Below, one piece after another: positions 323-44,303 of a stretch of DNA of 64,000 nucleotides. This stretch comes from an uncultured Gemmatimonadales bacterium (GTDB taxonomy: Bacteria > Gemmatimonadota > Gemmatimonadetes > Gemmatimonadales > Gemmatimonadaceae). The notes below the pieces were generated by a model. The model had not been told where the DNA came from, did not search any database, and saw nothing but the letters and a program-made list of their open reading frames with translations. Position 1 is the first letter of the stretch, and every line of letters begins with the position of its first letter. A program made the position numbers and the translations under genes. The stretch is taken from the NCBI GenBank assembly GCA_963701965.1, contig OY969695.1:1248001-1312000 (forward strand), in the 5' to 3' direction.

Positions 323-478
323 CGGCTATCCTCTGGGCATCGCGGCGTTCGCGCGCCGCTGGTTGCGCTTGACACCCAGAAAGGATGGACGGTGGCCAGT
401 TCGCGTTCGAGTGGCTCCCAATGAGCTCAGCTCAGCCGACCCTCCGTCCCGATTCTACACAAATCTCTGCACACTCCC
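1..478 (-). mobile_element. IS256-family insertion sequence, left end (continues beyond window start)
   Basis: Minus strand encodes an IS256/Mutator-type transposase N-terminus. The segment ends in an IS256-like terminus (revcomp GGGAGTGTGCAGAGATTTGTGTAGAATC) at 478, after which composition and reading frame change. Confidence 0.85.
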
Positions 479-829
479 TCGTCCCAAAGTGCTATCACGA
501 GCATCCGACAACGAAGTGCGCTAAATCCTGCTCTTTATTTGTGTGGTATTGTTTCGATTCCAGCCTGGGGGTTAGCTGTATTCGCGCCCCAGGCAATACC
601 TGTCGCGGTACGGGTCTCCCTGCTGGCACTTGGTGCACTGCCAGTCGTGCTTATCATCGGCGCATTTCTGTACTTTATGTTCAATGATCGCGATCGCCTT
701 CAAAGTGAGGAGTTCGTGATCAAGAAATCAGAATTGGAGTACATTCACCGCAAAGGCGAACAAGGGGGATACCCCGCAGCACGCGTGAACCTGATTACGA
801 ATCCTGACGCCAAGGACACGGCGACATGA
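479..829 (+). pseudogene. Small two-TM membrane protein, 5' end probably cut off by IS256
   Basis: The frame of ORF 539-829 is open back to the IS end (SSQSAITSIRQRSALNPALYLCGIV...) with no ATG. It has two hydrophobic helices followed by DRDRLQSEEF. Confidence 0.55.
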
Positions 830-1170
830 CGAAGATAGTATCCCGGCCGCTATTGATTTCGTTTGCAAGTGACTTCGCAGCGGACGAACAGTTGCGGAAG
901 GTAGTCGACGGTCTGTCAGAGATCCTCTCCTGGTATCAGTGTCTCCCCGGCCAGCTCTTTGTAGTGAGCACTACGACTGCACTCGACTTAGCGGAGACCA
1001 TAGAGATCCTTTTCAAGCAGAATGGGATGCGACACATGTTCTACGTGGCCGAACTAAACCCAATTGCCATTCAGGGAAGATTGCCCAACGACGCCTGGGC
1101 AGTCATCACGCAAGCCCAGGCGTGGCTCGAGTTGAATCCTTCCCCTGAACGGACACCGAGTACTCAGTGA
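826..1170 (+). CDS. Hypothetical 114-aa alpha/beta protein
   Basis: ATGA overlap with the upstream gene. The pattern W.QCLP..LFVVS....DLAE.I....FYVAEL.....GRLP..AW resembles small ferredoxin-like island proteins. Confidence 0.6.
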   Translation: MTKIVSRPLLISFASDFAADEQLRKVVDGLSEILSWYQCLPGQLFVVSTTTALDLAETIEILFKQNGMRHMFYVAELNPIAIQGRLPNDAWAVITQAQAWLELNPSPERTPSTQ

Positions 1171-26128: not shown

Positions 26129-28510
26129 GTGCTACTCCTCACATTCGCCGCGGGCGCCATCTTGGCGCTGCGCCCCGACACGACGCCGGCGCCGATGGGC
26201 GGCGTTTACAACGGCCGCTCCGGACAACTGACGGTGCGCATCCCGCAGCTGGACGGGGCACCCATCATGGACGGCACGCTCAACGATCCCGTCTGGCAGC
26301 GGGCGGCCGTCCTCACGGGGTTCTCGGAATACACGCCGATGGACGGCCTGCCGGCCGAGGACTCGACCGAAGTGCTCGTGTGGTATTCGCACCGGGCAAT
26401 CTACTTCGGGATCCGGGCGTTCGAGCCGCATGGGAACGTGCACTACAAGCTGGCCGACCGCGACAAGATCGACGCCGACGACAACATCCAAGTCATCCTG
26501 AGTCCGTTCTTGCACGCCCGCCAAGCCCTGGTCTTCGCCGTCAACCCGCTTGGCGTTCAGGAAGACGGCACCATGACCGAGGGCGTGCGGGTCACCGGTC
26601 GGAGCTTCAACACCGGCAACACCCAAACCGGACGCCCATCGACGGACCTGAGCCCCGATTTCGTGTTCGAGTCCAAGGGACACCCCACGACGACGGGCTA
26701 CGAGGTCGTCATCCGGATTCCCTTCCGGAGCATCAAGTACCAGTCCCAGGATCCCCAGGATTGGGGCGTCAACATCATCCGCAAGGTCCAGCATTCCGGG
26801 CACGAGCAGAGCTGGGTGCCCGCCAAGATCGCGGCCGCGTCATTTCTCGCGCAGCTCGGCACCCTCAAGGGCCTGACGCAGCTGCAACGCGGCCTCGTAC
26901 TGGACCTCAATCCATTTGTCACCGAACGGGTGACCGGCGACAGCGCCAATCCCAAGCCCTGGCGCTACGGCACCGACCGGCCCGAGTTCGGCGCCAACGT
27001 GCGCATCGGCCTCACGAACAACCTGACCTTGAACGGCACCTACCGCCCCGACTTCGCCGAGGTGGAATCGGATGCCACGAAGCTGGTGCTCGACCCCCGC
27101 AACGCGATCAGCTATCCAGAAAAACGTCCGTTCTTCCTGGACGGCCTGGAGCAGTTCAGCACTCCGAACAATCTGATCTACACGCGCGCGATCGAGGCGC
27201 CGATCGCCGCCGGCAAACTGACCGGGAAGATCGGGGGCTTCACGGTAGCGTACCTGGGCGCCCAGGACGTCGAGGACTCCTCGGTCACGGGTGCCGGCCA
27301 CCCGATCTACAACGTCCTCCGCATGTGGCGCGACATCGGCTCGGCGTCCCAGATCGGCACGGCGATCACGGACAAGGAACAGGGCGGTGCCTACAGCCGC
27401 ATGGCCAGCGTAGACGGCCGGTTCACCTTCGCGAAGCTGTACACGCTGCAGCTGCAAGGCGGCACCAGTGAATCCCGCGACACCGTCGATGGGCGAACCA
27501 CGGCGGGACCGATCTTCTATGGCCGGTTCACGCGCGCCGGACGCAATTTCGGCTTGGACTACGTCGTCCGGCAGATCGATCCGCAGTTCGAGGCGGCCAG
27601 CGGATTCATCGCACGCGTGGGCCTCGGCACCGTGTCCATCGATCACCGGCTCACGCTGTACAACAAACCGGGCAGCTTCTTCGAGACGTTCGGCGGAGAC
27701 TTCCGCATCAGCGACACGTGGGCCGGCCGGACCCTGACCGACTTCGAAAAAGCCGAAGACCAGCGCTACCAGTTCAACTTGAACCTCGGCTTGCGGGGCG
27801 GATGGCAGGTGGGGGGCGCGCTCTACTTCGAGCACTACGGCTACGATCCGACGCTGTACTCGAACTATTTCCTAGGGAAGATCTCCGGAGTCGACACGAC
27901 CCTCATCCCGTTCTCCAACCGTCAGGAGGCGATCCCCAACACCGATCACGTCATCAACCTCGTCACCCCGCAGTTCGCGCACTTCTCGGCGAGCTTCGTA
28001 TACGTGTGGGGTCCGGACGAGAACTTCTTCGAGTGGGCGTCCGCCGACGTGGATCTACCGCAGATCGCCATCACATGGCAGCCCACCCAACAACTGCGGT
28101 TCAACGGGACGTACACCGCGCAGTTTTATCACCGCCACAGCGACGGCACGACGGTCGCGCGGACGACGATCCCGCGCCTCGACGCCGAGTTTCAGCTTTC
28201 GCGCGCCATCTTCGTGCGGTTCATCGGCCAGTACGACTCCGAGTTTCAGGATAGCCTGCGCGATGACTCGCGCACGAACCTCCCGATCTACATTCGGAGC
28301 GCCACGACGGGCATCATCAGCCGGGCGACGGCCGGGACGAGCAATCTGTTCACGGGCAGCCTGTTGTTCTCCTATCAGCCCGTGCCCGGCACGGTGGCGT
28401 TCCTCGGATACGGCAATGACGCGACCGAGCCGCTCTCCCTGCACTTCACGGGGCTGCGCCGGCAGGCCGACAGCTTCTTCGTGAAGTTCAGCTACTTATT
28501 TCGCGTGTAG
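26129..28510 (+). CDS. CBM9-like / DUF5916 outer-membrane protein
   Basis: DG.L.DP.W, F.VNP.GVQ.D, IPFRSI.Y, PDFAEVESD, PEKRPFFL, C-terminal FFVKFSYLFRV beta-barrel end. Confidence 0.8.
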   Translation: MLLLTFAAGAILALRPDTTPAPMGGVYNGRSGQLTVRIPQLDGAPIMDGTLNDPVWQRAAVLTGFSEYTPMDGLPAEDSTEVLVWYSHRAIYFGIRAFEPHGNVHYKLADRDKIDADDNIQVILSPFLHARQALVFAVNPLGVQEDGTMTEGVRVTGRSFNTGNTQTGRPSTDLSPDFVFESKGHPTTTGYEVVIRIPFRSIKYQSQDPQDWGVNIIRKVQHSGHEQSWVPAKIAAASFLAQLGTLKGLTQLQRGLVLDLNPFVTERVTGDSANPKPWRYGTDRPEFGANVRIGLTNNLTLNGTYRPDFAEVESDATKLVLDPRNAISYPEKRPFFLDGLEQFSTPNNLIYTRAIEAPIAAGKLTGKIGGFTVAYLGAQDVEDSSVTGAGHPIYNVLRMWRDIGSASQIGTAITDKEQGGAYSRMASVDGRFTFAKLYTLQLQGGTSESRDTVDGRTTAGPIFYGRFTRAGRNFGLDYVVRQIDPQFEAASGFIARVGLGTVSIDHRLTLYNKPGSFFETFGGDFRISDTWAGRTLTDFEKAEDQRYQFNLNLGLRGGWQVGGALYFEHYGYDPTLYSNYFLGKISGVDTTLIPFSNRQEAIPNTDHVINLVTPQFAHFSASFVYVWGPDENFFEWASADVDLPQIAITWQPTQQLRFNGTYTAQFYHRHSDGTTVARTTIPRLDAEFQLSRAIFVRFIGQYDSEFQDSLRDDSRTNLPIYIRSATTGIISRATAGTSNLFTGSLLFSYQPVPGTVAFLGYGNDATEPLSLHFTGLRRQADSFFVKFSYLFRV

Positions 28511-30760
28511 CGCGAAGGCCAGCACCGCGGAGCCCGCCGACACGGCCACGTACTGCGTGCCGTTGACGGCATAGGTCATTGGCGAGGCCTTCCACACGGC
28601 GTTGGTGTGGAAGTGCCACAGCGGCGCACCCGTCGCCGCATCGACGGCGGCGAGCGCTCCACTGTCATCGCCGTAAAAGACGAGCCCTCCGGCGGTGCCG
28701 AGGACGCCGCCCCACGACTCGCCGTCGCCCACCTGCGGGATCTCCCAGACGATCTTTCCCGTCTGGACATTGATGGCCCGCAGCACTTTCTGGCGGACCT
28801 CGCCCGGAACGTGATTGGCGCCACCGCCGTAGAACGACTGGCCGCGCTGCCACCACGCCGACGATTTCGTGAAGACGCTGCAGGCCTCCAGGGCCATCAC
28901 GTAATAGAGGCCGGTCGTCGAGTCGAACGCCGTCGACATCCAGTTCGTCGCCCCCTCCAGTGACGGGCAGGCCTTCGTGCCCGGGACCGTCGGATCCGTT
29001 CCCGGGAGCACGAGAGGCCGGCCATCCGGTCCAATGGCGCTGGCCCACGTGAGCTTGTGCACGAACGGACGGCTCAGGAGGACCTTGCCCGTGATGCGGT
29101 CCAACACGTAAAAGAACCCGTTACGATTCGCCTGCACGAGGAGCTTGCGCGGCTGCCCCTGAAACACCGTGTTGATGAGCGCGGGAGTCTGCGTAGCGTC
29201 CCAGTCGTGCAGGTTGTGCGGCGTGAACTGGTAGTACCACGCCAGCTTCCCGGTGTGCGGCTCGAGCGCCAGCACGGAGCTCGAATAAAGATTGTCGCCC
29301 TGGCGTTCGTCGCCGTTGTAGTCCGGGCACGGATTGCCCGTCGGCCAGTACACGAGATTCGTCGACGGGTCGTACGTACCGGTGAGCCAGGCCGCCCCGC
29401 ACCCATGCTCCAAGGCGCGGCCGCGCCACGTGCTGGCGAGCGGCTCGCCGGGTTTGGGGATCGTCCAGAAGCGCCACACGCGGCGGCCAGTGCGGGTGTC
29501 GTACGCCGAGATGAATCCCCGGTCGCCTTCATCGCCGCCGGACGTACCGGAGAGTACGAGACTGTCGATGACCAGCGGGGCGCCGGTGGCGCCGTAGTGC
29601 TGATGGTAGTCGGCCATGGCGACGTCCCACAGCGGCGCGCCGGTGGTACGCGAGAGTGCCACCAAGTGCGCATGGTCCGTCACCATGAACACGCGATCGC
29701 CGCGGACCGCCACGCCACGATTGATGGCGCCGGCGGCGTCGCCAATGACGCCCTTGGTCAACGGGCGGGCGTAGTGCCAGATCGCGCGGCCCGTCGCCGC
29801 ATCCAGCGCATAGGCCTCGTTCGCGGTGGTCACGAACATCATGCCGCCGACGACGATGGGCGTGCCTTCGAGATGGCGGGCCTTGGGAAACGGGAACATC
29901 CAGGCCGGGGCCAGCGTGTGGACGTTGCTCGTGTCGATGGCGCGGAGGGGACTATACCGGTTGCCGCTCGGGTTGCCGTTGTACGTTGGCCAGTCGCCAA
30001 TGGCTGGCGTCTCCGGGCGCTCGGGCGGATCGTGTTGGGGCGTCGCGTGCGCGGTGAGGCGGCTCAGATACGCGACGAGGTCCCGCACGGTGTCGCCTCC
30101 GGCGACGACGGGCGGCATGAGCGACACCGAGTCGTGCGATTCGTGCGCGATCTCCGCCCGCGACAAGAAATGCAGCGTGCCGGTCAGGTCCAACAACTGG
30201 AGATCAAAATTGCTCTCGTTCTTGGCGACGCCGCGCACGGCGCGGCCGTCGCGGAGTTGCACCGTGACGGGCGCGTAGCCGGTGCGTGGGACGGGATGGC
30301 GTAGGGCCTCGGCGATCCGTTCCACCCGGCGTTGGTGACCGAGGTTCGAGAGATCGGGGCCCAGCACGCCGCCTTGGCCATCGACCATGTGGCACGTCGT
30401 GCAGCGGCCGGCGCCGAAGAAGTACTGTTGGCCGGCCGACACATCGCCGGCCGGCGGATGGGCGGCGGCGGTGGCGCGTAGCGACGTGAGATACGCGACC
30501 AAGGCGTCCAGATCCGGCTTGGGCAACGTGAACGACGGCATCCCGGCGTCGGTGATCCCGTGTGTGATGATCTGGGCCAGCGGCGCCGAGAAGAGCGTGT
30601 CGTCCCCGGCGTCCACGAGGTTGGGGCCAATCTCGCCTCCCGTGGCGTCGAGGCCGTGGCAGCCGGCGCAGCGCGCGGCGAACTGGGTCTTGCCGGCCTC
30701 GATCTGCTGGGCCTGCGCCGTCGCGGCGCACGCCAGCAGCACCGCGACCCAACCTTTCAT
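28496..30760 (-). CDS. PQQ-type beta-propeller dehydrogenase with two N-terminal c-type cytochrome domains
   Basis: Signal peptide; CAGCH and CTTCH; DWPTYNG...RYSPL..I, GDNLYSSS, HDWDATQ, ANRNGFFYVLDR.TG, SPMTY...G.QYVAV. Confidence 0.9.
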   Translation of the reverse strand: MKGWVAVLLACAATAQAQQIEAGKTQFAARCAGCHGLDATGGEIGPNLVDAGDDTLFSAPLAQIITHGITDAGMPSFTLPKPDLDALVAYLTSLRATAAAHPPAGDVSAGQQYFFGAGRCTTCHMVDGQGGVLGPDLSNLGHQRRVERIAEALRHPVPRTGYAPVTVQLRDGRAVRGVAKNESNFDLQLLDLTGTLHFLSRAEIAHESHDSVSLMPPVVAGGDTVRDLVAYLSRLTAHATPQHDPPERPETPAIGDWPTYNGNPSGNRYSPLRAIDTSNVHTLAPAWMFPFPKARHLEGTPIVVGGMMFVTTANEAYALDAATGRAIWHYARPLTKGVIGDAAGAINRGVAVRGDRVFMVTDHAHLVALSRTTGAPLWDVAMADYHQHYGATGAPLVIDSLVLSGTSGGDEGDRGFISAYDTRTGRRVWRFWTIPKPGEPLASTWRGRALEHGCGAAWLTGTYDPSTNLVYWPTGNPCPDYNGDERQGDNLYSSSVLALEPHTGKLAWYYQFTPHNLHDWDATQTPALINTVFQGQPRKLLVQANRNGFFYVLDRITGKVLLSRPFVHKLTWASAIGPDGRPLVLPGTDPTVPGTKACPSLEGATNWMSTAFDSTTGLYYVMALEACSVFTKSSAWWQRGQSFYGGGANHVPGEVRQKVLRAINVQTGKIVWEIPQVGDGESWGGVLGTAGGLVFYGDDSGALAAVDAATGAPLWHFHTNAVWKASPMTYAVNGTQYVAVSAGSAVLAFALHAK

Positions 30761-33594
30761 CGCGTGAAGACCAGCGTGCCGAAATGCTCGGGAACATGAT
30801 TCGGATCGCGGTCCGGCCCCGCGCACGTCGGCTGCCAGCACATGAACCGGCGCTGCGGATCGGCCCCCACCCCCTCGATCCGATAGAGATTCATCCGCCA
30901 GCGCGTGCCGGCGGCCACGTGGCCGCCGTCGATGGCGCGGAGCGGAATGCGCGCGGCCGCGTACCACACGTGCGCTTGGCGATCAATGCGGGCCATCGTG
31001 TGCCATCCCGACCGCCACGCCGGCGTCTTGCCGGACGTGTCTGGGTGATCGAGGTCGATCGCCAGGTCGATCCAGTCGGCCGTGGGCGCGATCTCGAACT
31101 CCCGATAATGGCGGATGTTCTTCCAGTCGGAGCCCAAGAAGAGCTCGACGACGTCCCGGTCCCAGAGCTTCATCCGCGGCTGGCCGTTGTCGGCTGGGAG
31201 CCAGAGATTGAGCGCATCATAGGGCGCGTCGAACAGCACGTAGAGATCCGTGTCGCTCCAGAAGGCCCGCACGTCCGTGGCCAACCGCGGATAGTCGACG
31301 GCGTGTGAGCAATCGCGCACGATTGTGGTCCGGCCGGCGGCCGACCACGTGGGCGACGCAGGATCGAGCGACAACGCCCCCGGGTGCGACACATGCGGAA
31401 TCGAGAGCGTGGCGGTGGGACCGGCGACCGCGCAGGCGGGATAGGGATTGATGCCGTGCGTGGCCGTGCGGAGCTTGTAGACCGACGTCGTCGCCGTGAT
31501 ATAGAGCGTGCCGTAGTCGGCATCGCCCCACGTCAGGTTCGCCGGCTGCTCGGGCATGGCGATCGTGCCCAGGTGATGCCCCTCGGGATCCCAGACCCAG
31601 ATGCCGAGTGGGCCGGTGACGAAGATGTTGCCGTGCACGTCGACGCGCATGCCGTCCGGTACGCCGTTCGCCTTGGGACCGGGCTCCGTAACGAAGATGC
31701 GCCCATTGGCGATGGCGCCGTTCGCGAAATCGTAGACGCGGATGTTCTGCTGATCGCTGTCGTCAATGTAGAGCTTCGTGCCATCGGGCGAGAACGCGAG
31801 GCCGTTGGGTTGCGTCAGCTCCTTCGTCAAGAGGGTCACGTGCCCCGCGTGATCCAGGCGATAGACCCCTTGAAACGGGATCTCTTGCGCCTGGCCTTTC
31901 GGCAAATCCAGCGTGGGGTCCGTGAAGTACAAGGCGCTGTCCGGCCCGATCACAATGTCGTTCGGGCTGTTGAACCGCTTGCCCTCGTACCGGTCGGCGA
32001 GCGTCGTGTACTGGCCGTCGGGCGTGATGGCGATGACCGCGCGGAGCGCACTGGCGCCGTCGATCAGGCGGCGTTGGCCATCGAGGATGTTGCCGTCCGG
32101 GTCGCCCAGGTGAATCATCGGCACCTTGCGACCGTCCATGTAGACGCGGAAGATCGAGTCCTGCGTCTCGTCGCTGACGTACAGGAAGTTCGCGGGATCC
32201 CAGGCGGGACCCTCGGTGAAACCAAAGCCCGTCGCGATGCGCGCGAGTGGGGTGCCGGCCGGCACCAGTTGTCCGAACGCCGGCGCATCGACCTCGAGGT
32301 GAAAATCCCGGGACTGGCGGCTGGTGCAACCCGCCGCCGCCAACACCAGCGCCAATGCCGCGACGATCATCCGATCCGGGCGAATGGCGATCCACGCCAG
32401 AGCGCCAATGACGCACAGCGCCGCGGCCACGAGAAACGGCGTCGTCCATCCGTATTTGTCGGCCAGGTACGGCGTGAGCGACACCGTCACCATGCCGCCC
32501 ACCTGGGCCCCCATGTTCACGACGGCGGACACCGCGCCCGTGGAGGGACCGGAGATATCGGCGCTGACCGACCAGAACGAGCTTTGGGCCAGGTACAGTG
32601 TCCCCGCACCGCCGGCCAGCACCAGGCTCGCGAGTTGGGGGCTATCGACGAACATCCCGGCCGCCAGGCAGACGGCGGCCAGGCTGATGCCGACCATCGC
32701 GACGCCGGCCCGGCCAACGCGCCGGCCGTAGCGCTTCGCCAGACGATCGCTCAGGAAGCCGCCCAGCAAGGAGCCCACGGCCATGCCAATGAAGGGCAGC
32801 ATGCCGTACAGAGCGCTCGATTTGAGATCCATTCCGCGAACGGTGCGTAGGTAGATGAAAAACCAGGAGAAGAAGATCCAGGCCGCGTAGCCGTAGCAGA
32901 AGTAGCTGATCGTGAGGAGAATGATGTTGCGATCGGAAACAATCGTACCCCACCGGAGCGGCGGCCCCTGCGGCGCCTGCCGCAGGGTGATGCCGTCATC
33001 GGGCGTGTCGCGCGCGAGTGCATACCAGATGACGCCCGCGATGACGCCAATGGCGGCGCAGACGAAAAACGACACGCGCCAGCCGTGGTAGAACATGACG
33101 TAGGCGACCAATGGCGGGGCGATACCCGCACCGAGGCCGACGCCCGTGAAGATCACACCGTTCGCCAGACCGCGCTGGGGCACCGGAATCCACGCAGCGA
33201 CAATGCGATTGGCGGCCGGGTACATGATGGCCTCTCCGGCGCCCAACGCGCAGCGGACGAGGATGAGCACCGTCAACGCCGAGGCGATGGGAGGCACCGC
33301 CGCGGTGAGAGCGCTGAAGACCGCCCACCAGATGACGGCCAGGGTGAGCGCCGAGCGGGCCCCGAGGCGGTCGGCGATGCGGCCGGCGGGTGCTTGGCAG
33401 ATCGTGTATCCCGCCAGGAACGCACTCTGCACCCAGCCCAGCCTGATGGTGCTCATCCCGTAAGTCTGCATCATCGCCTGGCCGGCGATCCCCAGGTTCG
33501 CACGGTCCAAGTAGGCGATCGCGCTGAGTACGAGCAGCCACGCGATCAGAACCCAGCGAAAACGTCCGGTGCGAGTCACGCGGTGGCCACTCAT
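30757..33594 (-). CDS. Fusion: ACS-family MFS transporter + SMP-30/gluconolactonase + CBM9-like domain
   Basis: AYLDRANL, G.IADRLG.R, GAGEA..YPA; then GFGFTEGPAW, FNSPND..., PNGLAFSPDG, PDGMRVD..GN; then LWDRDVVELF, EFEIAP, WRMNLYR, HVPEHFG.L.F. One continuous frame. Confidence 0.85.
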   Translation of the reverse strand: MSGHRVTRTGRFRWVLIAWLLVLSAIAYLDRANLGIAGQAMMQTYGMSTIRLGWVQSAFLAGYTICQAPAGRIADRLGARSALTLAVIWWAVFSALTAAVPPIASALTVLILVRCALGAGEAIMYPAANRIVAAWIPVPQRGLANGVIFTGVGLGAGIAPPLVAYVMFYHGWRVSFFVCAAIGVIAGVIWYALARDTPDDGITLRQAPQGPPLRWGTIVSDRNIILLTISYFCYGYAAWIFFSWFFIYLRTVRGMDLKSSALYGMLPFIGMAVGSLLGGFLSDRLAKRYGRRVGRAGVAMVGISLAAVCLAAGMFVDSPQLASLVLAGGAGTLYLAQSSFWSVSADISGPSTGAVSAVVNMGAQVGGMVTVSLTPYLADKYGWTTPFLVAAALCVIGALAWIAIRPDRMIVAALALVLAAAGCTSRQSRDFHLEVDAPAFGQLVPAGTPLARIATGFGFTEGPAWDPANFLYVSDETQDSIFRVYMDGRKVPMIHLGDPDGNILDGQRRLIDGASALRAVIAITPDGQYTTLADRYEGKRFNSPNDIVIGPDSALYFTDPTLDLPKGQAQEIPFQGVYRLDHAGHVTLLTKELTQPNGLAFSPDGTKLYIDDSDQQNIRVYDFANGAIANGRIFVTEPGPKANGVPDGMRVDVHGNIFVTGPLGIWVWDPEGHHLGTIAMPEQPANLTWGDADYGTLYITATTSVYKLRTATHGINPYPACAVAGPTATLSIPHVSHPGALSLDPASPTWSAAGRTTIVRDCSHAVDYPRLATDVRAFWSDTDLYVLFDAPYDALNLWLPADNGQPRMKLWDRDVVELFLGSDWKNIRHYREFEIAPTADWIDLAIDLDHPDTSGKTPAWRSGWHTMARIDRQAHVWYAAARIPLRAIDGGHVAAGTRWRMNLYRIEGVGADPQRRFMCWQPTCAGPDRDPNHVPEHFGTLVFTR

Positions 33595-33683
33595 TGCGGC
33601 CATAATAACGCCATCTTGTCGCACGCGCCGTTTGACGGCAGGTTGTCTTGATTCGTGTGACATCTCGCTGACCGGAGGAACAT

Positions 33684-34115
33684 TTGCGTTCGATGCTCGT
33701 TCTGCTCGCGCTCTGCGCGGCACCCTCGCTCCAGGCCCAGGAGCGCCAGGTCTACAATCCCCCTGGCCTTCCCGCCAACCTCCCGTTCAGCAATGGCATC
33801 CGCGTGGGCGACATGCTCTGGATCGCCGGGACCGAGGGGACGGTGACCGGGGACATTGAGTCGGAGACTCGCACCGCGCTCGAGAACATCAAGAAGACGC
33901 TCGACGCGGCGGGGTTCAAGCCGAGTGAGGTGGTACAGGTGACGGTGTATCTCAAGGATATCGAGGATTTCCCGAAGATGAACGCGGTGTATCGCGAGTT
34001 CTTCCCCGATCCCAAACCCACGCGCACGACGGTGCAGATCGCGCGCCTGGTCAACGACGCGCGCATCGAGATCACGTCGGTCGCCGTGCGGGACCACGGC
34101 AAGAAGTCGCCGTGA
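33684..34115 (+). CDS. RidA/YjgF-family protein with N-terminal signal peptide
   Basis: GGAGG RBS; PFS.GI.VGD.L.I.G, V.VYL.DI.DF..MN.VY..FF....P.RTTVQ...L....IEI; MRSMLVLLALCAAPSLQA signal. Confidence 0.88.
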   Translation: MRSMLVLLALCAAPSLQAQERQVYNPPGLPANLPFSNGIRVGDMLWIAGTEGTVTGDIESETRTALENIKKTLDAAGFKPSEVVQVTVYLKDIEDFPKMNAVYREFFPDPKPTRTTVQIARLVNDARIEITSVAVRDHGKKSP

Positions 34116-35353
34116 CGACGCGCCGGGGGTTCGTCGAGCAGACGTTGGCGGCCGGAGCCGCCCTGACACTCCGGTTACCGGAGAGTCAGGCCGTCCCCAA
34201 ACCGGTCGACTACTACGACAAGTTGGGCGTCGCGAAGATCATCAATGCCGCCGGGACGTACACCTACCTGACGGCGTCGATCATGCCGCCGGAAGTCCAG
34301 GCGGCCATTCAGGTCGCCGGGCAACACAACGTCCGGCTGCGCGACCTGCAGGCCGCGGCGGGGACATATCTGGCCAAGCGTCTCAAATGCGAGGCGGCGC
34401 TCGTGTCCTCCGGTGCCGCGGCGGCGCTGTCGCTGGGCACCGCGGGCTGCATGACCCTGGGCAACCCGGATGGCGCCAAGGACGTACCGGCCCGCGCCGG
34501 AGCGTTCAAGCACGAGGTCATCATTCAGAAGGCGCACCGGTTTGTACACGAGCACGCGTTGGAGATGTGTGGCGCGACGCTGGTGGATGTCGAAACGCTC
34601 GCCGACTACGAGCAAGCGTTCAACCCGCGCACGGCGTTGGCGTTTTTCTTCAATGCCGCCGAGGGCGGGCAGATCACGCGCGAAGACTGGGTGCGCGTGG
34701 CGCGCGCGCACGGGGTGCCGACCTTGATCGATGCCGCAGCCGACGTGCCGCCCATCGCGAATCTCTGGAATTTCGCGGCGATGGGGTTCGACCTGGCCGC
34801 ATTCTCCGGCGGCAAAGGCATGCGGGGCCCGCAGAACGCGGGGCTGTTGTTGGGTCGCGCCGATCTCATCGCGGCCGCGGCCGCCAACAACAATCCCAAC
34901 GATCGTTCCGTCGGCCGCGGGATGAAGGTCGCCAAGGAACAGATCATTGGGATGGTAGCGGCGATCGACTGGCTGCTCGCTCGCACCGACGACCAGATCG
35001 AAGCCGAGGCGCGGCAGCGCGCCGAGCGGATCGCCGCGGCGCTGCATGGTTTGCCGACGCTCACCACCGAGATCTTCGTCCCGCCGATCGCCAACCACGT
35101 GCCGCATCTCATGATCCGGTACAACCAGCAACGCATCGGCATCGCCCCCATCAATGTGGCGCAGGCGCTCAGCAAGGGGCAGCCGGCGATCGAGCTGAAC
35201 CCGGGCACGGGGCACGCGTCGGGGGCCGCCGGACTGCACTCCGACGAACACACGATCGTGGTCGGCCCTTGGATGATGCAGCCGGGCGACGACGTTGTTG
35301 TCGGACGACGGTTGCGCGACGTGCTCCACGCTGCCGTGCGCCCGGAGGCATAG
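34112..35353 (+). CDS. SelA-like/DgaE-family PLP-dependent enzyme with twin-arginine signal
   Basis: TRRGFVEQTLAAGAAL; IINAAGTYTYL.AS, IDAAAD, FSGGKGMRGPQ.AGLL.G, GRGMKV.KE.I.G. Confidence 0.85.
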   Translation: MTTRRGFVEQTLAAGAALTLRLPESQAVPKPVDYYDKLGVAKIINAAGTYTYLTASIMPPEVQAAIQVAGQHNVRLRDLQAAAGTYLAKRLKCEAALVSSGAAAALSLGTAGCMTLGNPDGAKDVPARAGAFKHEVIIQKAHRFVHEHALEMCGATLVDVETLADYEQAFNPRTALAFFFNAAEGGQITREDWVRVARAHGVPTLIDAAADVPPIANLWNFAAMGFDLAAFSGGKGMRGPQNAGLLLGRADLIAAAAANNNPNDRSVGRGMKVAKEQIIGMVAAIDWLLARTDDQIEAEARQRAERIAAALHGLPTLTTEIFVPPIANHVPHLMIRYNQQRIGIAPINVAQALSKGQPAIELNPGTGHASGAAGLHSDEHTIVVGPWMMQPGDDVVVGRRLRDVLHAAVRPEA

Positions 35354-37774: not shown

Positions 37775-38359
37775 ATGCCTATCCCCGCGATTGACGTCGA
37801 TGCCCTCGGCAGGAACTGGTGGGCCGTGCTGCTACGCGGCGTGGTGGGCATCCTGTTCGGCATCGTCACGTTCATTGCCCCGGGCCTCAGCCTCGCCGCG
37901 CTCGTGCTGGCGTTTGGCTTCTATGCCATCGTCGACGGGGTCCTTTCGATCGTGAGCGCCCTCCGGCGGCCGAGTGCGGTCGACCACTGGTGGGTCGTGG
38001 TGCTCGAGGGGCTCGTGAGCCTGGCCGCCGGGCTCGCCGTGTTGTTCTGGCCACGCATCTCGGCGCTGGCCTTGTTGTATGCCGTTGCCATCTGGGCGCT
38101 CGTCACCGGCCTGTTCGAGATCGGCGCCGCCATTCGCCTACGCCGCGTAATCACGGGCGAATGGCTGCTGGTGCTGAGCGGCATCGCCTCCATCGTACTG
38201 GCCGTCGCCCTGTTCATGTTCCCCGGCCTTGGCGGGCTCGCGCTCGTCCTCTGGATCGGGGCCTACGCGTTCGTATTCGGCATACTGGTCGTGGCCTTCA
38301 GCCTGAAGCTCCGCTCCTGGGTCCGCACGCACCCCGCGCCGCTCATCGCGCCAGGCTGA
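37775..38359 (+). CDS. HdeD/DUF308-family membrane protein
   Basis: RNWW..LLRG...ILFG; FG.YA.VDG; A.WA.VTG..EI.AAIRLR..I.GEW.L. Confidence 0.9.
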   Translation: MPIPAIDVDALGRNWWAVLLRGVVGILFGIVTFIAPGLSLAALVLAFGFYAIVDGVLSIVSALRRPSAVDHWWVVVLEGLVSLAAGLAVLFWPRISALALLYAVAIWALVTGLFEIGAAIRLRRVITGEWLLVLSGIASIVLAVALFMFPGLGGLALVLWIGAYAFVFGILVVAFSLKLRSWVRTHPAPLIAPG

Positions 38360-40427
38360 ACGTCCCGGTCAGCGGTCCGATCATGACGTCGAAGGCGCCC
38401 GGCTCGATCACCGGGCGGCCATCCTGTCCCACGTAGGAGAGATCGCGTTCCTCGAGCGTGAACGCGAACGTGTGCGACGCGCCCGGCTCCAGCGTCACGC
38501 TGTCGAATCCCTTGAGCCGTCGCACGGCCGGCGTCAGGGACGCGTAGTGCTGGCGCGTGAAGAGGAGCGCCGTCTCTCGGCCGGCGCGATCGCCGGTATT
38601 CGTGATCGTGACCCGCACCGTGAGGCGCTCCCCTGCCCGAAGGACGGACCGGCCCAATCGGAGATCGGCATAGTCGAACGTCGTATAGCTCAAGCCCGTG
38701 CCCAGCAGCCACTGCGGCGCGAAACCGCCGGGCCCCCGCTCGAGACTCGCGTCGAGCGTCTCGGTGAAGCGATGGTCGTCCAGGAGCAGCGCGTGCGGAT
38801 GTCGGGGGTACGTGAACGGCAGCCGCCCACTGGGGTTGGTCTCGCCGAACAACACATTAGCGATCGCGTCCGCGCCTTCCATTCCGGGCCAGTAGGCCAT
38901 CAGGATGCCCCGCGCCACGTCGGCGATATCCTGAATGATCCGGGGCCGGCCTTCGGCCAGCACGAGAACCACGGGTACGCCGGCGCCCGCGAGGTCGGTG
39001 ACGAGACGGCGCTGGGGCTCGGGCAATGTCAGGTCGGCGATGTCGCCGAGCCACTCGGCGTAGGCATCCTCGCCGACGGCCACGATCGCGACGTCGGCGT
39101 CCTGGCCGGCGGCGACGACGTTGCTCGTATAACGACCGACCGCGTCGGCGAGCGTGGCGATGCCGGACGGATAGATCGAGGCATCGGTTCCTTGCCAGGA
39201 GTAGGTCCAACCGCCGTTGAGCATCGTCAGCGAGGTCGCGCCCGGTCCGGTGACCAGGACCCGCGCGTCCCGGCGCAGCGGCAGGATGCCATCGTTCTTC
39301 AAGAGCGTGAGCGACTCGCGCGCGGCCCGGCGGGCGACGTCCCGCGCGGCGGGCGTCGCCAACACGGCGCACGGGTCGGGATGCCACGCGCTGAATAATC
39401 CGAGACGGACTTTAAGGGAAAGAATCCGGGTGACGGAGGCGTCGATGCGCCGGGAGGAAATGGTGCCGTCGCGCACGAGCGCCAGTAGATGATCGGCGAA
39501 GGCGTAGTTGTCCGGAGCCATGCACACGTCGATTCCGGCTTCCACGATGAGGCGCACCGCATCCCGTATCGTGGGCGCGACCCGATGGCGCGTATGCAGA
39601 AATAGGACGTCGGCGTAGTCGGTCACGGCGACACCGGTGAACCCGAGCTCCTCGCGGAGGACGTGGGTCACCCAGTACCGGCTGGCGTGCACGGGCATGC
39701 CGTCGATCTCGCCGGAATTGATCATCACGGTCTGGGCGCCCGCCTCGATCGCGGCGCGGAACGGCGGCAGATAGTGTTCGCGCACGTCGCGCTCGCTGAG
39801 CGCGGCTGGCGTCCGGTCCCGTCCGGTCCGGGAGCCGCTGTATCCCACGAAGTGCTTCATCGTCGCCGCGACGCGGCCCGAAGACTGGAGACCCAGGATC
39901 GCCGCGCGGCCGAGCTCCGCCACGAGATGCGGGGCCTCGCCAAACGTCTCGTAGAACCGGGGCCAGACCGGTTGGCGTCCCGCGTCCAGCACCGGCGCGA
40001 AGTTCCAGGGCAGACCGGAGGCCAACGTCTCCCGCGCGGTGATCTCCGCGGTCTCCCGCACGAGACCGGGATCAAACGTGGCGGCGAGTCCAATGTTGTG
40101 CGGGAAGATCGTCGCGCCGCGCGTGAAATTGGCGCCGTGAACCGAGTCGATGCCGTAGATCACCGGGATGCGGAGTCGCGTCCCGGCGGCCACCTCCTGG
40201 ATCTGCCCCACGACCGCGTGCCACTGATCGAGGGTCTGGGCGACGTCGATGATGTTGAGCATGGAGCCGACGTGACGGTCGACGATCGCCTCCCGCAGTT
40301 TGGCGGCGTCGAACCGGATCGCGCCCGACGGATCACGGGTCGCCACGGCGGCCACCGTGAGCTGCGTCATCTGGCCGATCTTCTCTTCGAGCGTCATGCG
40401 CTCGAGCAACGCGTCGACGGTGCTCAC
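38343..40427 (-). CDS. GH3 beta-glucosidase, no signal peptide
   Basis: MTLEEKIGQM, GID.VHG, FPHNIGLAATF, KHFVGY, GVAVTDY (nucleophile Asp), LLKND..LPL, NPSGRLPFTYP, GLSYTTF.Y. Confidence 0.92.
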   Translation of the reverse strand: MSTVDALLERMTLEEKIGQMTQLTVAAVATRDPSGAIRFDAAKLREAIVDRHVGSMLNIIDVAQTLDQWHAVVGQIQEVAAGTRLRIPVIYGIDSVHGANFTRGATIFPHNIGLAATFDPGLVRETAEITARETLASGLPWNFAPVLDAGRQPVWPRFYETFGEAPHLVAELGRAAILGLQSSGRVAATMKHFVGYSGSRTGRDRTPAALSERDVREHYLPPFRAAIEAGAQTVMINSGEIDGMPVHASRYWVTHVLREELGFTGVAVTDYADVLFLHTRHRVAPTIRDAVRLIVEAGIDVCMAPDNYAFADHLLALVRDGTISSRRIDASVTRILSLKVRLGLFSAWHPDPCAVLATPAARDVARRAARESLTLLKNDGILPLRRDARVLVTGPGATSLTMLNGGWTYSWQGTDASIYPSGIATLADAVGRYTSNVVAAGQDADVAIVAVGEDAYAEWLGDIADLTLPEPQRRLVTDLAGAGVPVVLVLAEGRPRIIQDIADVARGILMAYWPGMEGADAIANVLFGETNPSGRLPFTYPRHPHALLLDDHRFTETLDASLERGPGGFAPQWLLGTGLSYTTFDYADLRLGRSVLRAGERLTVRVTITNTGDRAGRETALLFTRQHYASLTPAVRRLKGFDSVTLEPGASHTFAFTLEERDLSYVGQDGRPVIEPGAFDVMIGPLTGTFSLAR

Positions 40428-40464: not shown

Positions 40465-42525
40465 ATGGCCGAACACGGGACGCTGGACCGGGCCATCGCC
40501 CACCATCAGGCCGGACGTCTCGCCGAGGCGGCGAAGCTCTATCGCCGCGTCCTGCGCACCGACCCGCGCCAGGCCAATGCGCTGTACCTCCTCGGCGTCA
40601 TCGCCCACCAGACCAACGACCACGCCGGGGCCGTCGCGCTCGTGCGGCAGGCGTTAGACCTCGCGCCGAACCAGGGCCCCTGGCACAATCTCCTGGGCCT
40701 GTCACTCCTGAGCCTGGGCCGCGAAGCGGAAGCCAATGCCAGTTTAGCGCGCGCGACCGCGCTCGATCCCGGCCCCGAGTCATACAATAGCCTAGGCAAT
40801 CTCCGCAAACAGCAGCGCCGCCTCAATGACGCGATCGCCGCCTACGCGCGCGCGATCGGCCGCGAGCCCCGATACCCCGACGCGCATTTCAACCTGGGAC
40901 TCGCGCTGCGGGAAAAGGGCGACGACGTCGCGGCCGCGGCCAGCTTTCGGAAGGCCCTCGAGATCCAGCCCGCCCACGTCGATGCGAAGGCCGCCCTGAG
41001 TCAGCTCCATCTCGAGTCCGGCAACGCGCACCACGCGCGCGGCGCGCTCGACGACGCGATCGCCGCCTACCACGCCGCGCTGGCGGTCGATCCCGCCATG
41101 GCGGTCGCGTGGTACGCCATGGGATGCGCCGAGAGCGCCGCCAAGCACTACGTCGCGGCGACGACCAGTTTCCATCGCGCGCTGGACTTGCAGCCCGCGT
41201 GGCCGGAGGCCGCGCACAACTTCGGCCAAGCGTTGTTCCATCTCGGCCAGATCGAGGAAGCGTTGGCGATGTTTCGGCGGGCCGCGGCCGGCGGGCCGAT
41301 CGAGCTGCCGCTGTCGGCGATCGCCGTGGCCATTCCCGGCAGCCCCGCGAGCGACAATCAGGCCGTGCTCGTCGCCCGGCGGGAGTGGGCGGACCGCTGC
41401 CTCCCGTCCGCTCCCGCGCGTGCGCCCGGCGCACGATCGCCGGGCGGCCGGCTACGCGTCGGATACGTGTCGGCGTTCTTTCACCGGCACAACTGGATGA
41501 AGCCCGTGTGGGGTCTCATCAATCGCCATGACCGGCAACAGATCGCGGTGCATCTCTTCTCCGATGCCGCGGCATCGGCCATCGCCCACGGCTATCGACC
41601 CCAGCCTGGCGACCGATTTACCGAGACCGGTCACCTGTCCAACGAGACAATGGCCGAAGCGATCGCCCGGGCGGAGATCGACATTCTCGTCGATCTCAAC
41701 GGGTATAGCACACCGCGGCGGCTCCCGGTGTTCGCGGTGCGCCCGGCGCCCGTGATCGCCGGTTGGTTCAACATGTTCGCCACCACCGGGATGTCCTGCT
41801 ACGACTGTCTCGTGGGCGACGCGGTCGTGATCCCGCCCGAGGAAGAGCGCTTCTATACGGAGCCGATCGCGCGCGTCCCGGGCAGCTATCTCACATTCGC
41901 CGTCGACTACCCCGTGCCGCCGGTCGCCGATCCCCCATCGTCCCGGACGGACGGCTTCGCGTTCGGATGCCTGGCGCCGCAGTACAAGATCACGCCCGAC
42001 GTCATTGCGGCGTGGTGTCGGATCCTGCACGGCGTCCCGGGCAGCACGTTGCTCCTCAAGAGCACCGCGCTCGCCGGCGCCGGCGAACGGCGATTCGTGC
42101 ATAGGCTGTTCGCGCGTCACGACATCCCGAGTGACCGGGTGCGGCTCGATGGTCCGTCCGATCACTACCGTTTTCTGGAAGCGTACGACGCCGTCGACGT
42201 GGCGTTGGACACGTTTCCGTACAACGGCGGCACGACCACGACGGAGGCCATCTGGCAGGGCGTGCCCGTGGTGACGTTCTGGGGAGATCGGTGGGTCTCG
42301 CGCACCAGCGCGTCAATTCTGCGCGCGGGCAACCTGGGCGACTTCGTCGCCGCCGATGTCGATGCCTACGTGGCGATGGCGATCGGCCTGGCGCACGCGC
42401 CGCTCACGGAGATCCGGCGCACAATGCGCGCTCGGCTGCGCGATGCACCGGTGTGCGACACGCAGAGCTTCGCGGCCCACATGGAAACGCTCTATGCGAG
42501 GCTCTGCGCATCGCGGCAGCGATGA
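40465..42525 (+). CDS. TPR-containing O-linked glycosyltransferase (OGT/SPINDLY, GT41-like)
   Basis: Multiple TPRs; LRVGYVS, IDILVDLNG, PAPV, DVALDTFPYNGGTTTTEAIWQGVPVVT. Confidence 0.9.
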   Translation: MAEHGTLDRAIAHHQAGRLAEAAKLYRRVLRTDPRQANALYLLGVIAHQTNDHAGAVALVRQALDLAPNQGPWHNLLGLSLLSLGREAEANASLARATALDPGPESYNSLGNLRKQQRRLNDAIAAYARAIGREPRYPDAHFNLGLALREKGDDVAAAASFRKALEIQPAHVDAKAALSQLHLESGNAHHARGALDDAIAAYHAALAVDPAMAVAWYAMGCAESAAKHYVAATTSFHRALDLQPAWPEAAHNFGQALFHLGQIEEALAMFRRAAAGGPIELPLSAIAVAIPGSPASDNQAVLVARREWADRCLPSAPARAPGARSPGGRLRVGYVSAFFHRHNWMKPVWGLINRHDRQQIAVHLFSDAAASAIAHGYRPQPGDRFTETGHLSNETMAEAIARAEIDILVDLNGYSTPRRLPVFAVRPAPVIAGWFNMFATTGMSCYDCLVGDAVVIPPEEERFYTEPIARVPGSYLTFAVDYPVPPVADPPSSRTDGFAFGCLAPQYKITPDVIAAWCRILHGVPGSTLLLKSTALAGAGERRFVHRLFARHDIPSDRVRLDGPSDHYRFLEAYDAVDVALDTFPYNGGTTTTEAIWQGVPVVTFWGDRWVSRTSASILRAGNLGDFVAADVDAYVAMAIGLAHAPLTEIRRTMRARLRDAPVCDTQSFAAHMETLYARLCASRQR

Positions 42526-42761: not shown

Positions 42762-44303
42762 CTAATGCACGTAGTGGGCCATCAACATCGGCGGAGGGCG
42801 GTAGGCCACATGTCCCCGGGTGTCGTACGGGACATCATATGGCGCATCGCCGCGCGGCCAGTCTAATGCCTTGCCGGCGAGATCGGGCCGCGGATGCGAC
42901 AGCATGTACGCGGCGAGATCGAACGCGTCCTGATCGGTGAGCGTGCCGGGACGATCGTACGGCATCGCGCGCCGGATGAATGAGGCCGCGCGTCCTTCGC
43001 GCGCCATCGACGCGCCGACACTGAATGACCGCGGCCCCCACAGCGGCGGCGCCATCGCCGTTCCTTCACCGACGGGACCATGACAGCGGCTGCACTGCGG
43101 GCCGTACAGCGTCGCGCCCCGCGTCGTATCGCCCGTGAGCGGCGAGAGCGTCGGGAGGCCGGAGCCTCGCACCTCGGCCCCGCGCGGGATGCCCGTCGAG
43201 AGAAACGCGAGATAGGCGATCATGTCGTGCATGTCGCGGCTCGAGTCCGCGAGCGGCTGACCCGCGAGGCTGCGCGTGAGGCAGAAGTTGATGCGCTCTT
43301 CGATCGATGCCACCGCGCCCTTGCGCTCGATGAAGCGCGGATAGCGCGCGTAGGTGCCGATGAGCATCGCCCCGCCCGCCCGCCGCCCGCCGTCGATGTG
43401 GCAGCTGAGACATCGCAAGGCATTCGCGGCATTGGCGGGAAGACTGTCGTGCGTGTGCGCGATCAACGCCAGCCCGCGCCGGATAGACGCGCCGGCGCTA
43501 TCGTGCGGGATCGTCGAGTCGGACGGCACGACGGATGGTTCGATGGCGACGGCCGGTTTCGGTGCCCGCGTCTTGAAAAACATGAACGCGCCGACGGCGA
43601 GGAGCAGCACGGCGAAACCGCGTTTGAGGCGCGCTGGGGAGATCAGGGCGCAGAGTTGCGTGCCGATCAGGATGCCGATGACCGCCACTCCCGTAAAGAG
43701 GCCGACCGTCGGCCAGGACATTGGGACGTGGCCCAGGTAGCCGACGAGACCCGCCGCGGAGTTCGCGGCGATCACCAAGAGCGACGTGCCGATGGCGAGC
43801 GGCATCGGCACGTTTCCGAACAACACCAACGCCGGGACAATCAGGAATCCGCCGCCCACTCCGACGAGTCCGGTGAGGACGCCGACGCCGGCGCCGACCG
43901 GCGCCAGGCGTAACGGGTGCGGCGCCCGGGTTGCCGCCACCTCCGGGCGGGACGCGTTCCGGAACATTGAGACTGCGGCCACGCAAATGACCAGCGCCAA
44001 CAACGAGAGTTGGACCGGACCGGAGAGCCGCGTCCCCAGACGCGCGCCGACGTACGCCAGCGGGATGGCCGTGACGCCGAAAATGGCGGCCATCCGGAAA
44101 TCCATGCGGCCCGCGCGCCAGTGACCGATGGCGCCGACCAGGCTGACCGTGCCGACGACGACGAGGCTCATCGCGATCGCTTGCTTGGCCTCGAACCCCA
44201 AGACGTACACGAAGATCGGCACGGTCAGGACCGAGCCGCCACCACCCAGGAGCCCCAGCGAAAGACCGACGGCCAGCGCCAGCGCGAGTCCGAGAACCGT
44301 CAC
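42762..44303 (-). CDS. Fusion: TauE/SafE (TSUP) transporter + TsdA-like di-heme c thiosulfate dehydrogenase
   Basis: GLLGGGGSVLTVP and GLVGVGGGFLIVP repeats, AIGTSL; then CLSCH, YPRF..RKG....EERINFCLTRSL.G, CSRCHG..G.G, PPLWG..SF..GA.M.R, FI...MP. Confidence 0.88.
   Translation of the reverse strand: MTVLGLALALAVGLSLGLLGGGGSVLTVPIFVYVLGFEAKQAIAMSLVVVGTVSLVGAIGHWRAGRMDFRMAAIFGVTAIPLAYVGARLGTRLSGPVQLSLLALVICVAAVSMFRNASRPEVAATRAPHPLRLAPVGAGVGVLTGLVGVGGGFLIVPALVLFGNVPMPLAIGTSLLVIAANSAAGLVGYLGHVPMSWPTVGLFTGVAVIGILIGTQLCALISPARLKRGFAVLLLAVGAFMFFKTRAPKPAVAIEPSVVPSDSTIPHDSAGASIRRGLALIAHTHDSLPANAANALRCLSCHIDGGRRAGGAMLIGTYARYPRFIERKGAVASIEERINFCLTRSLAGQPLADSSRDMHDMIAYLAFLSTGIPRGAEVRGSGLPTLSPLTGDTTRGATLYGPQCSRCHGPVGEGTAMAPPLWGPRSFSVGASMAREGRAASFIRRAMPYDRPGTLTDQDAFDLAAYMLSHPRPDLAGKALDWPRGDAPYDVPYDTRGHVAYRPPPMLMAHYVH

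Follow-up and report, generated by a model that had tools for sequence, protein, structure and literature searches.

The 64,000-nucleotide window analysed here (contig OY969695.1, positions 1,248,001 to 1,312,000) comes from the genome of an uncultured Gemmatimonadales bacterium (5.1 Mb, a single contig, 95% complete), and carries four genes that appear to specify an exported route for the oxidation and deamination of an amino sugar. As the initial annotation described, the open reading frames (ORFs) form two divergent pairs of overlapping genes. Each overlap measures 4 nt: the end of a gene fusing a major facilitator superfamily (MFS) transporter to an SMP-30 lactonase and a CBM9-like domain shares ATGA with the start of a pyrroloquinoline quinone (PQQ)/heme-c dehydrogenase gene, and the stop of a Rid gene shares GTGA with the start of a gene for a pyridoxal phosphate (PLP) enzyme; the gap between the pairs is 80 or 89 bp, set by the MFS start chosen. 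The reading we favour, with a probability of about 0.55, is that enzymes in the periplasm oxidise a hexosamine, then open and deaminate the product in unphosphorylated form, the keto-deoxy acid afterwards being imported.

In this scheme the dehydrogenase would turn a free hexosamine, gluco or galacto, into its lactone and pass the electrons to two c-hemes; the membrane-tethered SMP-30 domain, to judge by its family, would open the lactone, the CBM9-like domain probably keeping the sugar close by. The PLP enzyme, loaded with its cofactor in the cytoplasm before export by the twin-arginine (Tat) system, would, on the strength of its structure, remove water from the 2-amino-2-deoxyaldonate and free an enamine, whose hydrolysis to 2-keto-3-deoxyaldonate and ammonia the exported Rid would speed. 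The acid would be brought in by the DgoT-like MFS part, and cytoplasmic DgoK and a DgoA-type aldolase, encoded elsewhere, would complete its breakdown. We infer a glucosamine- or galactosamine-type substrate.

Export signals were judged from motif and conservation. The N-terminus of the PLP enzyme carries a twin-arginine motif, which recurs in 75 of the 77 homologues with a visible N-terminus, as against 48 of 4238 genes genome-wide (80 loci were kept of 141 found, three lacking the N-terminus; the background is from in-house gene calls); the two misses resemble a frameshift and a partial match, and tatC is found in the genome. With Sec signals on Rid and dehydrogenase and a lipoprotein-type signal in the fusion, the export proposed from this sequence is thus upheld at the level of prediction. 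Among the proteins encoded in neighbouring clusters, signals are found on deacetylases and on most RraA aldolase-like proteins, and kinases, DHDPS-like and D-TA enzymes are signal-less, a pattern that can be read as placing the ATP-using steps inside the cell and the remaining steps outside. PvdN and PtaA are earlier examples of PLP enzymes exported by Tat (PMC6206403).

The PLP enzyme is of fold-type I, with the DgaE/Cap15 fold; its nearest structures are DgaE (7LC0, TM-scores 0.78/0.87) and Cap15 (8T7J, 0.79/0.89). It lies below the cut-offs of the curated DgaE/DGL hidden Markov models (119.5 bits against 600 for NF047797, 152.4 against 385 for TIGR01437), but its PLP lysine, Lys235, is kept in 85/85 family rows and an equivalent of DgaE Arg226 is present. 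Of its earlier SelA/DgaE-like label, the DgaE part therefore stands by fold and the SelA part does not: TIGR00474 gives 25 bits against a cut-off of 268, and a full SelA sits elsewhere, at C1:830252. In DgaE the substrate phosphate was placed at Arg301/332/346 by manual docking, and His163 protonates the enamine; the H163A mutant is still active but lets the enamine go, which the authors connect with RidA (PMC9529869). In a profile alignment these arginines correspond to His332/Asn363/Trp387 of the window's enzyme, and none of the three is found in 45/49 short-form and 31/36 long-form homologues, the other 9/85 keeping one; as controls, an Enterococcus DgaE-family protein has all three and one from Rhizobium two. 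Likewise the DgaE His162/His163 pair aligns to a loop without histidine: the His-His loop occurs in 0/85 family rows, where a single His is seen in 2/49 short-form rows, as against 2/2 of the same cytoplasmic controls. (The catalytic lysine of DgaE is 217 in the paper and 213 by our alignment count on 7LC0; other numbers agree.) The loss of the arginine triad and of both enamine-handling histidines suits a substrate without phosphate and help from a Rid, and because the enamine-protonating histidine is among the losses, the lyase would release its enamine. The losses fit what would be predicted for an unphosphorylated substrate and an exported Rid, without naming the substrate; they, and the separate true SelA, lend weight to the non-phosphorylated substrate originally suggested. 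We consider it quite probable that the enzyme is a periplasmic lyase acting on an unphosphorylated, sugar-type amino acid.

The Gemmatimonadota lyases form a single branch (support 100/100) inside a mainly Acidobacteriota group, in a tree of 62 rows in which one long paralogue in four was kept. Alphaproteobacterial (Rhizomicrobium-like) orthologues (L028, L032-L034, L037, L040, L041, L047) keep the Tat signal while the partner genes are not adjacent; close dehydrogenases are found at other places in those genomes.

The Rid protein matches Pfam PF01042 (Ribonuc_L-PSP), bears a predicted Sec signal with AxA, and retains an Arg and a Glu that we take to be catalytic; at 93 bits against the TIGR00004 cut-off of 106 it belongs to the Rid family, with the subfamily uncertain. 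Rids of neighbouring loci mostly have Sec or Tat signals, that of locus L043 being the exception. A close Rid orthologue is present in 5/13 lyase-bearing Gemmatimonadota, always beside the lyase, and in 0/32 family members without a close lyase. Rid is dispensable, and would be helpful rather than essential.

DgoT is the top match of the MFS part of the fusion, both by sequence and by fold, and TIGR00893 (ACS-family D-galactonate transporter) gives 220 bits for a cut-off of 395. The lactonase domain passes Pfam SGL and keeps Glu/Asn/Asn/Asp, presumably the SMP-30 metal site. The domains named at the outset were mostly recovered (MFS_1, SGL, cytochrome c, PQQ propeller, Ribonuc_L-PSP, DgaE-like); for CBM9, Pfam CBM9_1/2 found no match on the fusion protein itself and a PDB sequence search with the domain, whose model is of low confidence, gave none, the label coming from Atlas CBM9 clusters at 0.96 and from a homologue, P0116, that passes CBM9_1. 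The CBM9-like domain is also fused to TPR proteins in 14 of the matches listed (P0078, P0116 and others). That the fusion is an assembly artefact was considered and rejected: it is matched over 98-99% of its length by proteins of eight other clusters, with 63-66% identity. Its 12 MFS helices are modelled confidently and are followed by a hydrophobic stretch closing at Cys426, a lipoprotein-type signal kept in 8/8 fused homologues and with which six unfused lactonase-CBM9 proteins begin. Since this signal is retained after 12 helices, the lactonase should face the periplasm, held by a 13th anchor or as a cleaved lipoprotein, the linker being modelled at low confidence; the fusion may even be cut at the internal signal, which would make it a transporter-enzyme polyprotein.

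The dehydrogenase has a Sec signal, two cytochrome c domains (CxxCH heme motifs at residues 31 and 120) and an 8-bladed PQQ propeller. The closest models are TIGR04528 (Acido-empty-quinoprotein A; 528 bits, cut-off 650) and TIGR03075 (PQQ alcohol dehydrogenase; 477.4 bits, cut-off 480), neither cut-off being reached, and TIGR03074, a membrane glucose dehydrogenase model, gives 199 bits for a cut-off of 833; by sequence the protein appears to belong to an uncharacterised clade. A vicinal Cys-Cys, which we take to be an active-site feature of PQQ alcohol dehydrogenases, is missing from it and from the seven commonest variants in 81 orthologue rows, and present in three paralogues in the genome. 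The usual metal Glu is replaced by Asp, in a motif shared by 67/81 orthologue rows, and an extra conserved Cys motif is found in 70/81. The D-x-D motif (Asp520-Trp-Asp522) is of the type treated as a marker of lanthanide use in PQQ dehydrogenases (PMC11996626); given the Asp at the metal Glu, even with D-x-D the enzyme would only possibly use a lanthanide. Hexosamine as its substrate, which we infer, is the weakest link of the proposal. TIGR04528 quinoproteins are known from hosts unable to make PQQ. An "empty" quinoprotein without cofactor supply is ruled out here by pqqBCDE, over cut-off at C1:3672084-3675300, with a PqqA-like short ORF upstream; biotin genes adjoin. A further PQQ gene, methanol-dehydrogenase-like with D-x-D, is split over two frames at C1:2655413-2657273, probably by a sequencing frameshift, and clusters with a second PQQ enzyme and a cytochrome.

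The genes are linked beyond chance: co-occurrence in other genomes, on which the initial reading depended, is seen in neighbourhoods taken from the lyase end and from the dehydrogenase end, and in gene fusions, although the genomes surveyed are related, so that the counts overstate independence. From the first end, 38 close lyase loci (many on short contigs, and L027 from a genome flagged unpublished) include an MFS orthologue in 13, a lactonase in 9, a dehydrogenase in 10 and a Rid in 13; the MFS gene stands head-to-head with the exported lyase in 11/13 Gemmatimonadota loci, seven of them without lactonase or dehydrogenase nearby. From the other end, a lyase-family gene is found in 14/80 metagenome loci of the dehydrogenase, against an expectation of about 0.34; most frequent among the neighbours are clusters of lactonase/CBM9, lyase, TonB receptor, deacetylase and Rid. 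Among 200 evenly drawn Acidobacteriota, the lyase family occurs in 7/8 dehydrogenase-positive genomes versus 18/192 others (only 7-9 candidates scored per genome, one positive genome flagged unpublished, kin not independent). A close dehydrogenase is present in 6/13 lyase-bearing Gemmatimonadota versus 0/32 family members without a close lyase. Cross-fusions among the 120 matches listed join Rid repeats to SMP-30 (25), cytochrome-PQQ to SMP-30 (8), CBM9 to cytochrome-PQQ (34) and MFS to SMP-30 (9). Exported deacetylases recur beside both lyase and dehydrogenase in Acidobacteriota, and in a cluster of the cultured Granulicella tundricola the corresponding slots are taken by a BBE flavo-oxidase and by another kind of lactonase. 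The module is conserved in logic and fluid in gene content. The Granulicella cluster lies on a plasmid (L093:14107-24787), among glycoside hydrolases, and comprises an exported RraA-like protein, two lyase paralogues, a Tat-signal Rid, a deacetylase, a 7-bladed lactonase and the flavo-oxidase.

What becomes of the product is suggested by genes outside the window. A DgoK/DgoA-type aldolase operon, led by a signal-less fold-type III PLP enzyme of the D-TA family, lies at C1:1118047-1120609, about 160 kb from the module. In three congeners DgoK and a DgoA-type aldolase stand beside the dehydrogenase, a D-TA gene being visible in two of them; in a fourth DgoK, aldolase and D-TA gene are together on a separate contig. 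A kinase-like gene for 2-keto-3-deoxy sugar acids is found in 12/13 other lyase-bearing Gemmatimonadota (DgoK in 7, PfkB in 5); DgoK is present in 7/13 lyase-bearing genomes and 0/32 family members without a close lyase, and five of the six DgoK-less lyase genomes have behind the lyase a PfkB kinase whose best matches, below cut-off, are kinases of 2-keto-3-deoxygluconate (KDG) and its galacto counterpart (KDGal). NagA, NagB and DgoD were not found over cut-off in this genome, and a PF01182 match tried as NagB is Pgl instead. Because these kinases recur and neither DgoD, NagA nor NagB passes, the product is likely a 2-keto-3-deoxyhexonate of gluco or galacto type, in keeping with the keto-deoxy acid first predicted. 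A D-aminoacylase-like lipoprotein gene, split over two frames at C1:3942864-3944550, would in intact form be a candidate exported deacylase.

Several observations weigh against the periplasmic pathway as proposed. All four parts occur together in just 3/38 close lyase loci, and 14/38, mostly alphaproteobacterial and some on short contigs, show no partner; besides this genome, one congener (L006) alone showed the exact four-gene layout. The lyase is adjacent in only 2/10 regions around dehydrogenases of the sampled Acidobacteriota, and many of the dehydrogenase's lyase-family neighbours are the longer paralogue. More than half of the lyase-bearing Gemmatimonadota lack a close dehydrogenase or a close Rid, the latter being absent from 3/4 lyase-bearing congeners. 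The module has no deacetylase of its own, and the closest solved structures to the dehydrogenase are alcohol dehydrogenases. With kinase and aldolase so far away, Rid so often missing and the layout so rare, the description of the pathway as self-contained has to be given up. The D-TA-family enzyme of the DgoK-aldolase operon could moreover deaminate inside the cell, and is the main rival for this step because OngC, of that fold, performs it in the cytoplasm (PMC9537276). The amino-aldonate would then be made outside, imported by the MFS and deaminated by an OngC-like fold-type III enzyme, leaving a different epimer, or small D-hydroxy amino acids, to the exported lyase and Rid. Convergence of the D-TA gene on the dehydrogenase in congeners speaks for such a division of labour; the head-to-head pairing of MFS and exported lyase, often with neither lactonase nor dehydrogenase nearby, and the PfkB-bearing loci, with the kinase right behind the lyase and no D-TA gene in view, speak against it, and we judge it unlikely, at about one chance in five.

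Less probable still is a loose sugar-acid toolkit with a dehydrogenase whose substrate is a neutral aldose, an alcohol or a modified sugar (muramate, an Amadori compound, an amino-pentose). Its active site is of an uncharacterised type, several paralogues of dehydrogenase and lyase exist per genome, and mandelate-racemase-type dehydratases recur nearby; but the exported deacetylases beside both enzymes in Acidobacteriota point to N-acyl-amino sugars, and the kinases are of 2-keto-3-deoxyhexonate type. Cap15, as close in fold as DgaE and first in the fold search, is an oxygenase acting on an amino sugar acid of D configuration with a beta-hydroxy group (PMC6384614), which raises the prospect that the exported enzyme uses O2 to decarboxylate an amino-sugar acid, giving an amide with one carbon fewer; a Rid partner and keto-deoxy kinases suit elimination, not amide formation, and Cap15 retains arginines at three sites lost in the exported lyase family, so that we think this chemistry improbable. 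The rarity of the exact layout might also mean two unrelated operons around a common short promoter region, which, given the fusions across pairs (Rid with SMP-30) and reciprocal linkage in three phyla, we regard as very improbable.

The proposed periplasmic route works like the Ong pathway with a DgaE-like catalyst, and is a member of neither system. In Pseudoalteromonas prydzensis ACAM 620 a PLP enzyme likewise deaminates an unphosphorylated amino-aldonate to KDG and ammonia, with a RidA-family gene, a KDG kinase and phosphorylation last; there, however, the OngB deacetylase and OngC are predicted to be cytoplasmic, OngC is of fold-type III, oxidation is by a lytic polysaccharide monooxygenase and an SSS-type transporter takes up the amino acid (PMC9537276), whereas the module has a fold-type I Tat-signal lyase, a PQQ dehydrogenase, a lactonase and an MFS. 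Domain scans of the module found none of the Ong hallmarks looked for (OngB deacetylase, fold-type III OngC, SSS importer). Salmonella DgaE shares fold, PLP lysine motif, Arg226 and probably the same beta-elimination, but is cytoplasmic, linked to a phosphotransferase system, acts on a 6-phosphate and protonates its own enamine (PMC9529869); relative to it the module lyase has lost the Arg triad and His pair and gained a Tat signal and a Rid. Cap15, similar in fold and substrate configuration, is a biosynthetic, phosphate-dependent oxygenase-decarboxylase in whose aligned N-terminus no export signal is seen (PMC6384614). Acetic acid bacteria oxidise hexosamines with a membrane glucose dehydrogenase of another clade than this dehydrogenase. 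Glucosamine, mannosamine and galactosamine there yield amino-aldonates, but oxidation ends at the acid (PMC9171043). PvdN and PtaA are also Tat-exported folded with their cofactor, for siderophore tailoring rather than catabolism and, in the part of the source covered, with no Rid partner (PMC6206403). A GlcNAc route in Natrarchaeobius clusters deacetylase, glucose dehydrogenase, DgaE homologue and RutC-family gene, but is hypothetical and presumes a phosphorylated intermediate (PMC12343721). The chemistry is thus already known (Ong, dga, acetic acid bacteria); what is new is the compartment and the enzyme families. A search of main texts in mostly open literature turned up no account of an exported pathway pairing a DgaE-like enzyme with a Rid, a term search of PMC12017989 gave no match, and the deamination step was found described only inside cells, which is consistent with the novelty originally claimed for the exported architecture.

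Microbial cell-wall amino sugars are a large soil nitrogen pool. If the proposal is right, a periplasmic route would free ammonia from them without uptake or ATP, in a genome without NagA or NagB over cut-off; the orphan PQQ proteins of Acidobacteriota, which form a large clade, would gain a function, and Rid control of enamines would reach beyond the cytoplasm. The pairing of DgaE histidine loss with Rid gain makes the published His163 idea directly testable. In its broadest form, that soil Gemmatimonadota and Acidobacteriota mineralise amino sugars in the periplasm with a possibly lanthanide-using quinohemoprotein, a Tat lyase and exported Rid, and a lactonase-carrying transporter possibly cleaved by signal peptidase II, the idea is tentative, and on balance we would not yet bet on it.

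Features of the module (window coordinates; residues are those of the fusion protein)
Feature	Position	Strand	Remarks
PQQ/heme-c dehydrogenase	28496-30760	-	754 aa
MFS-lactonase-CBM9 fusion	30757-33594/33603	-	945/948 aa, by choice of start
MFS part of fusion	residues 11-408		12 helices, ACS/DgoT-like
Lipoprotein-type signal inside fusion	residues 412-426, 32326-32370	-	ends in Cys426
SMP-30 lactonase domain of fusion	residues ~430-715		Pfam SGL
CBM9-like domain of fusion	residues ~728-948		
Divergent intergenic region	33604-33683	.	between MFS fusion and Rid starts
Rid gene	33684-34115	+	TTG start with GGAGG ribosome site in front
PLP enzyme gene	34112-35353	+	follows Rid in same pair

Neither a sigma-70 consensus nor a conserved operator was found in the divergent gap. 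Foreign origin by composition was rejected, the GC content of the locus (65-69%) being like that of its flanks. An exported DUF5916 protein (26129-28510, +) converges on the dehydrogenase with an overlap of 15 nt, and a homologue is also near the lyase in a related locus (L019). Beyond the module, a GH3 glycosidase (38343-40427, -) and an O-GlcNAc-transferase-like (GT41) TPR protein (40465-42525, +), both without signal, are not conserved with it, and a TauE/SafE exporter fused to a SoxA/TsdA-type di-heme cytochrome c is encoded at 42762-44303 (-).

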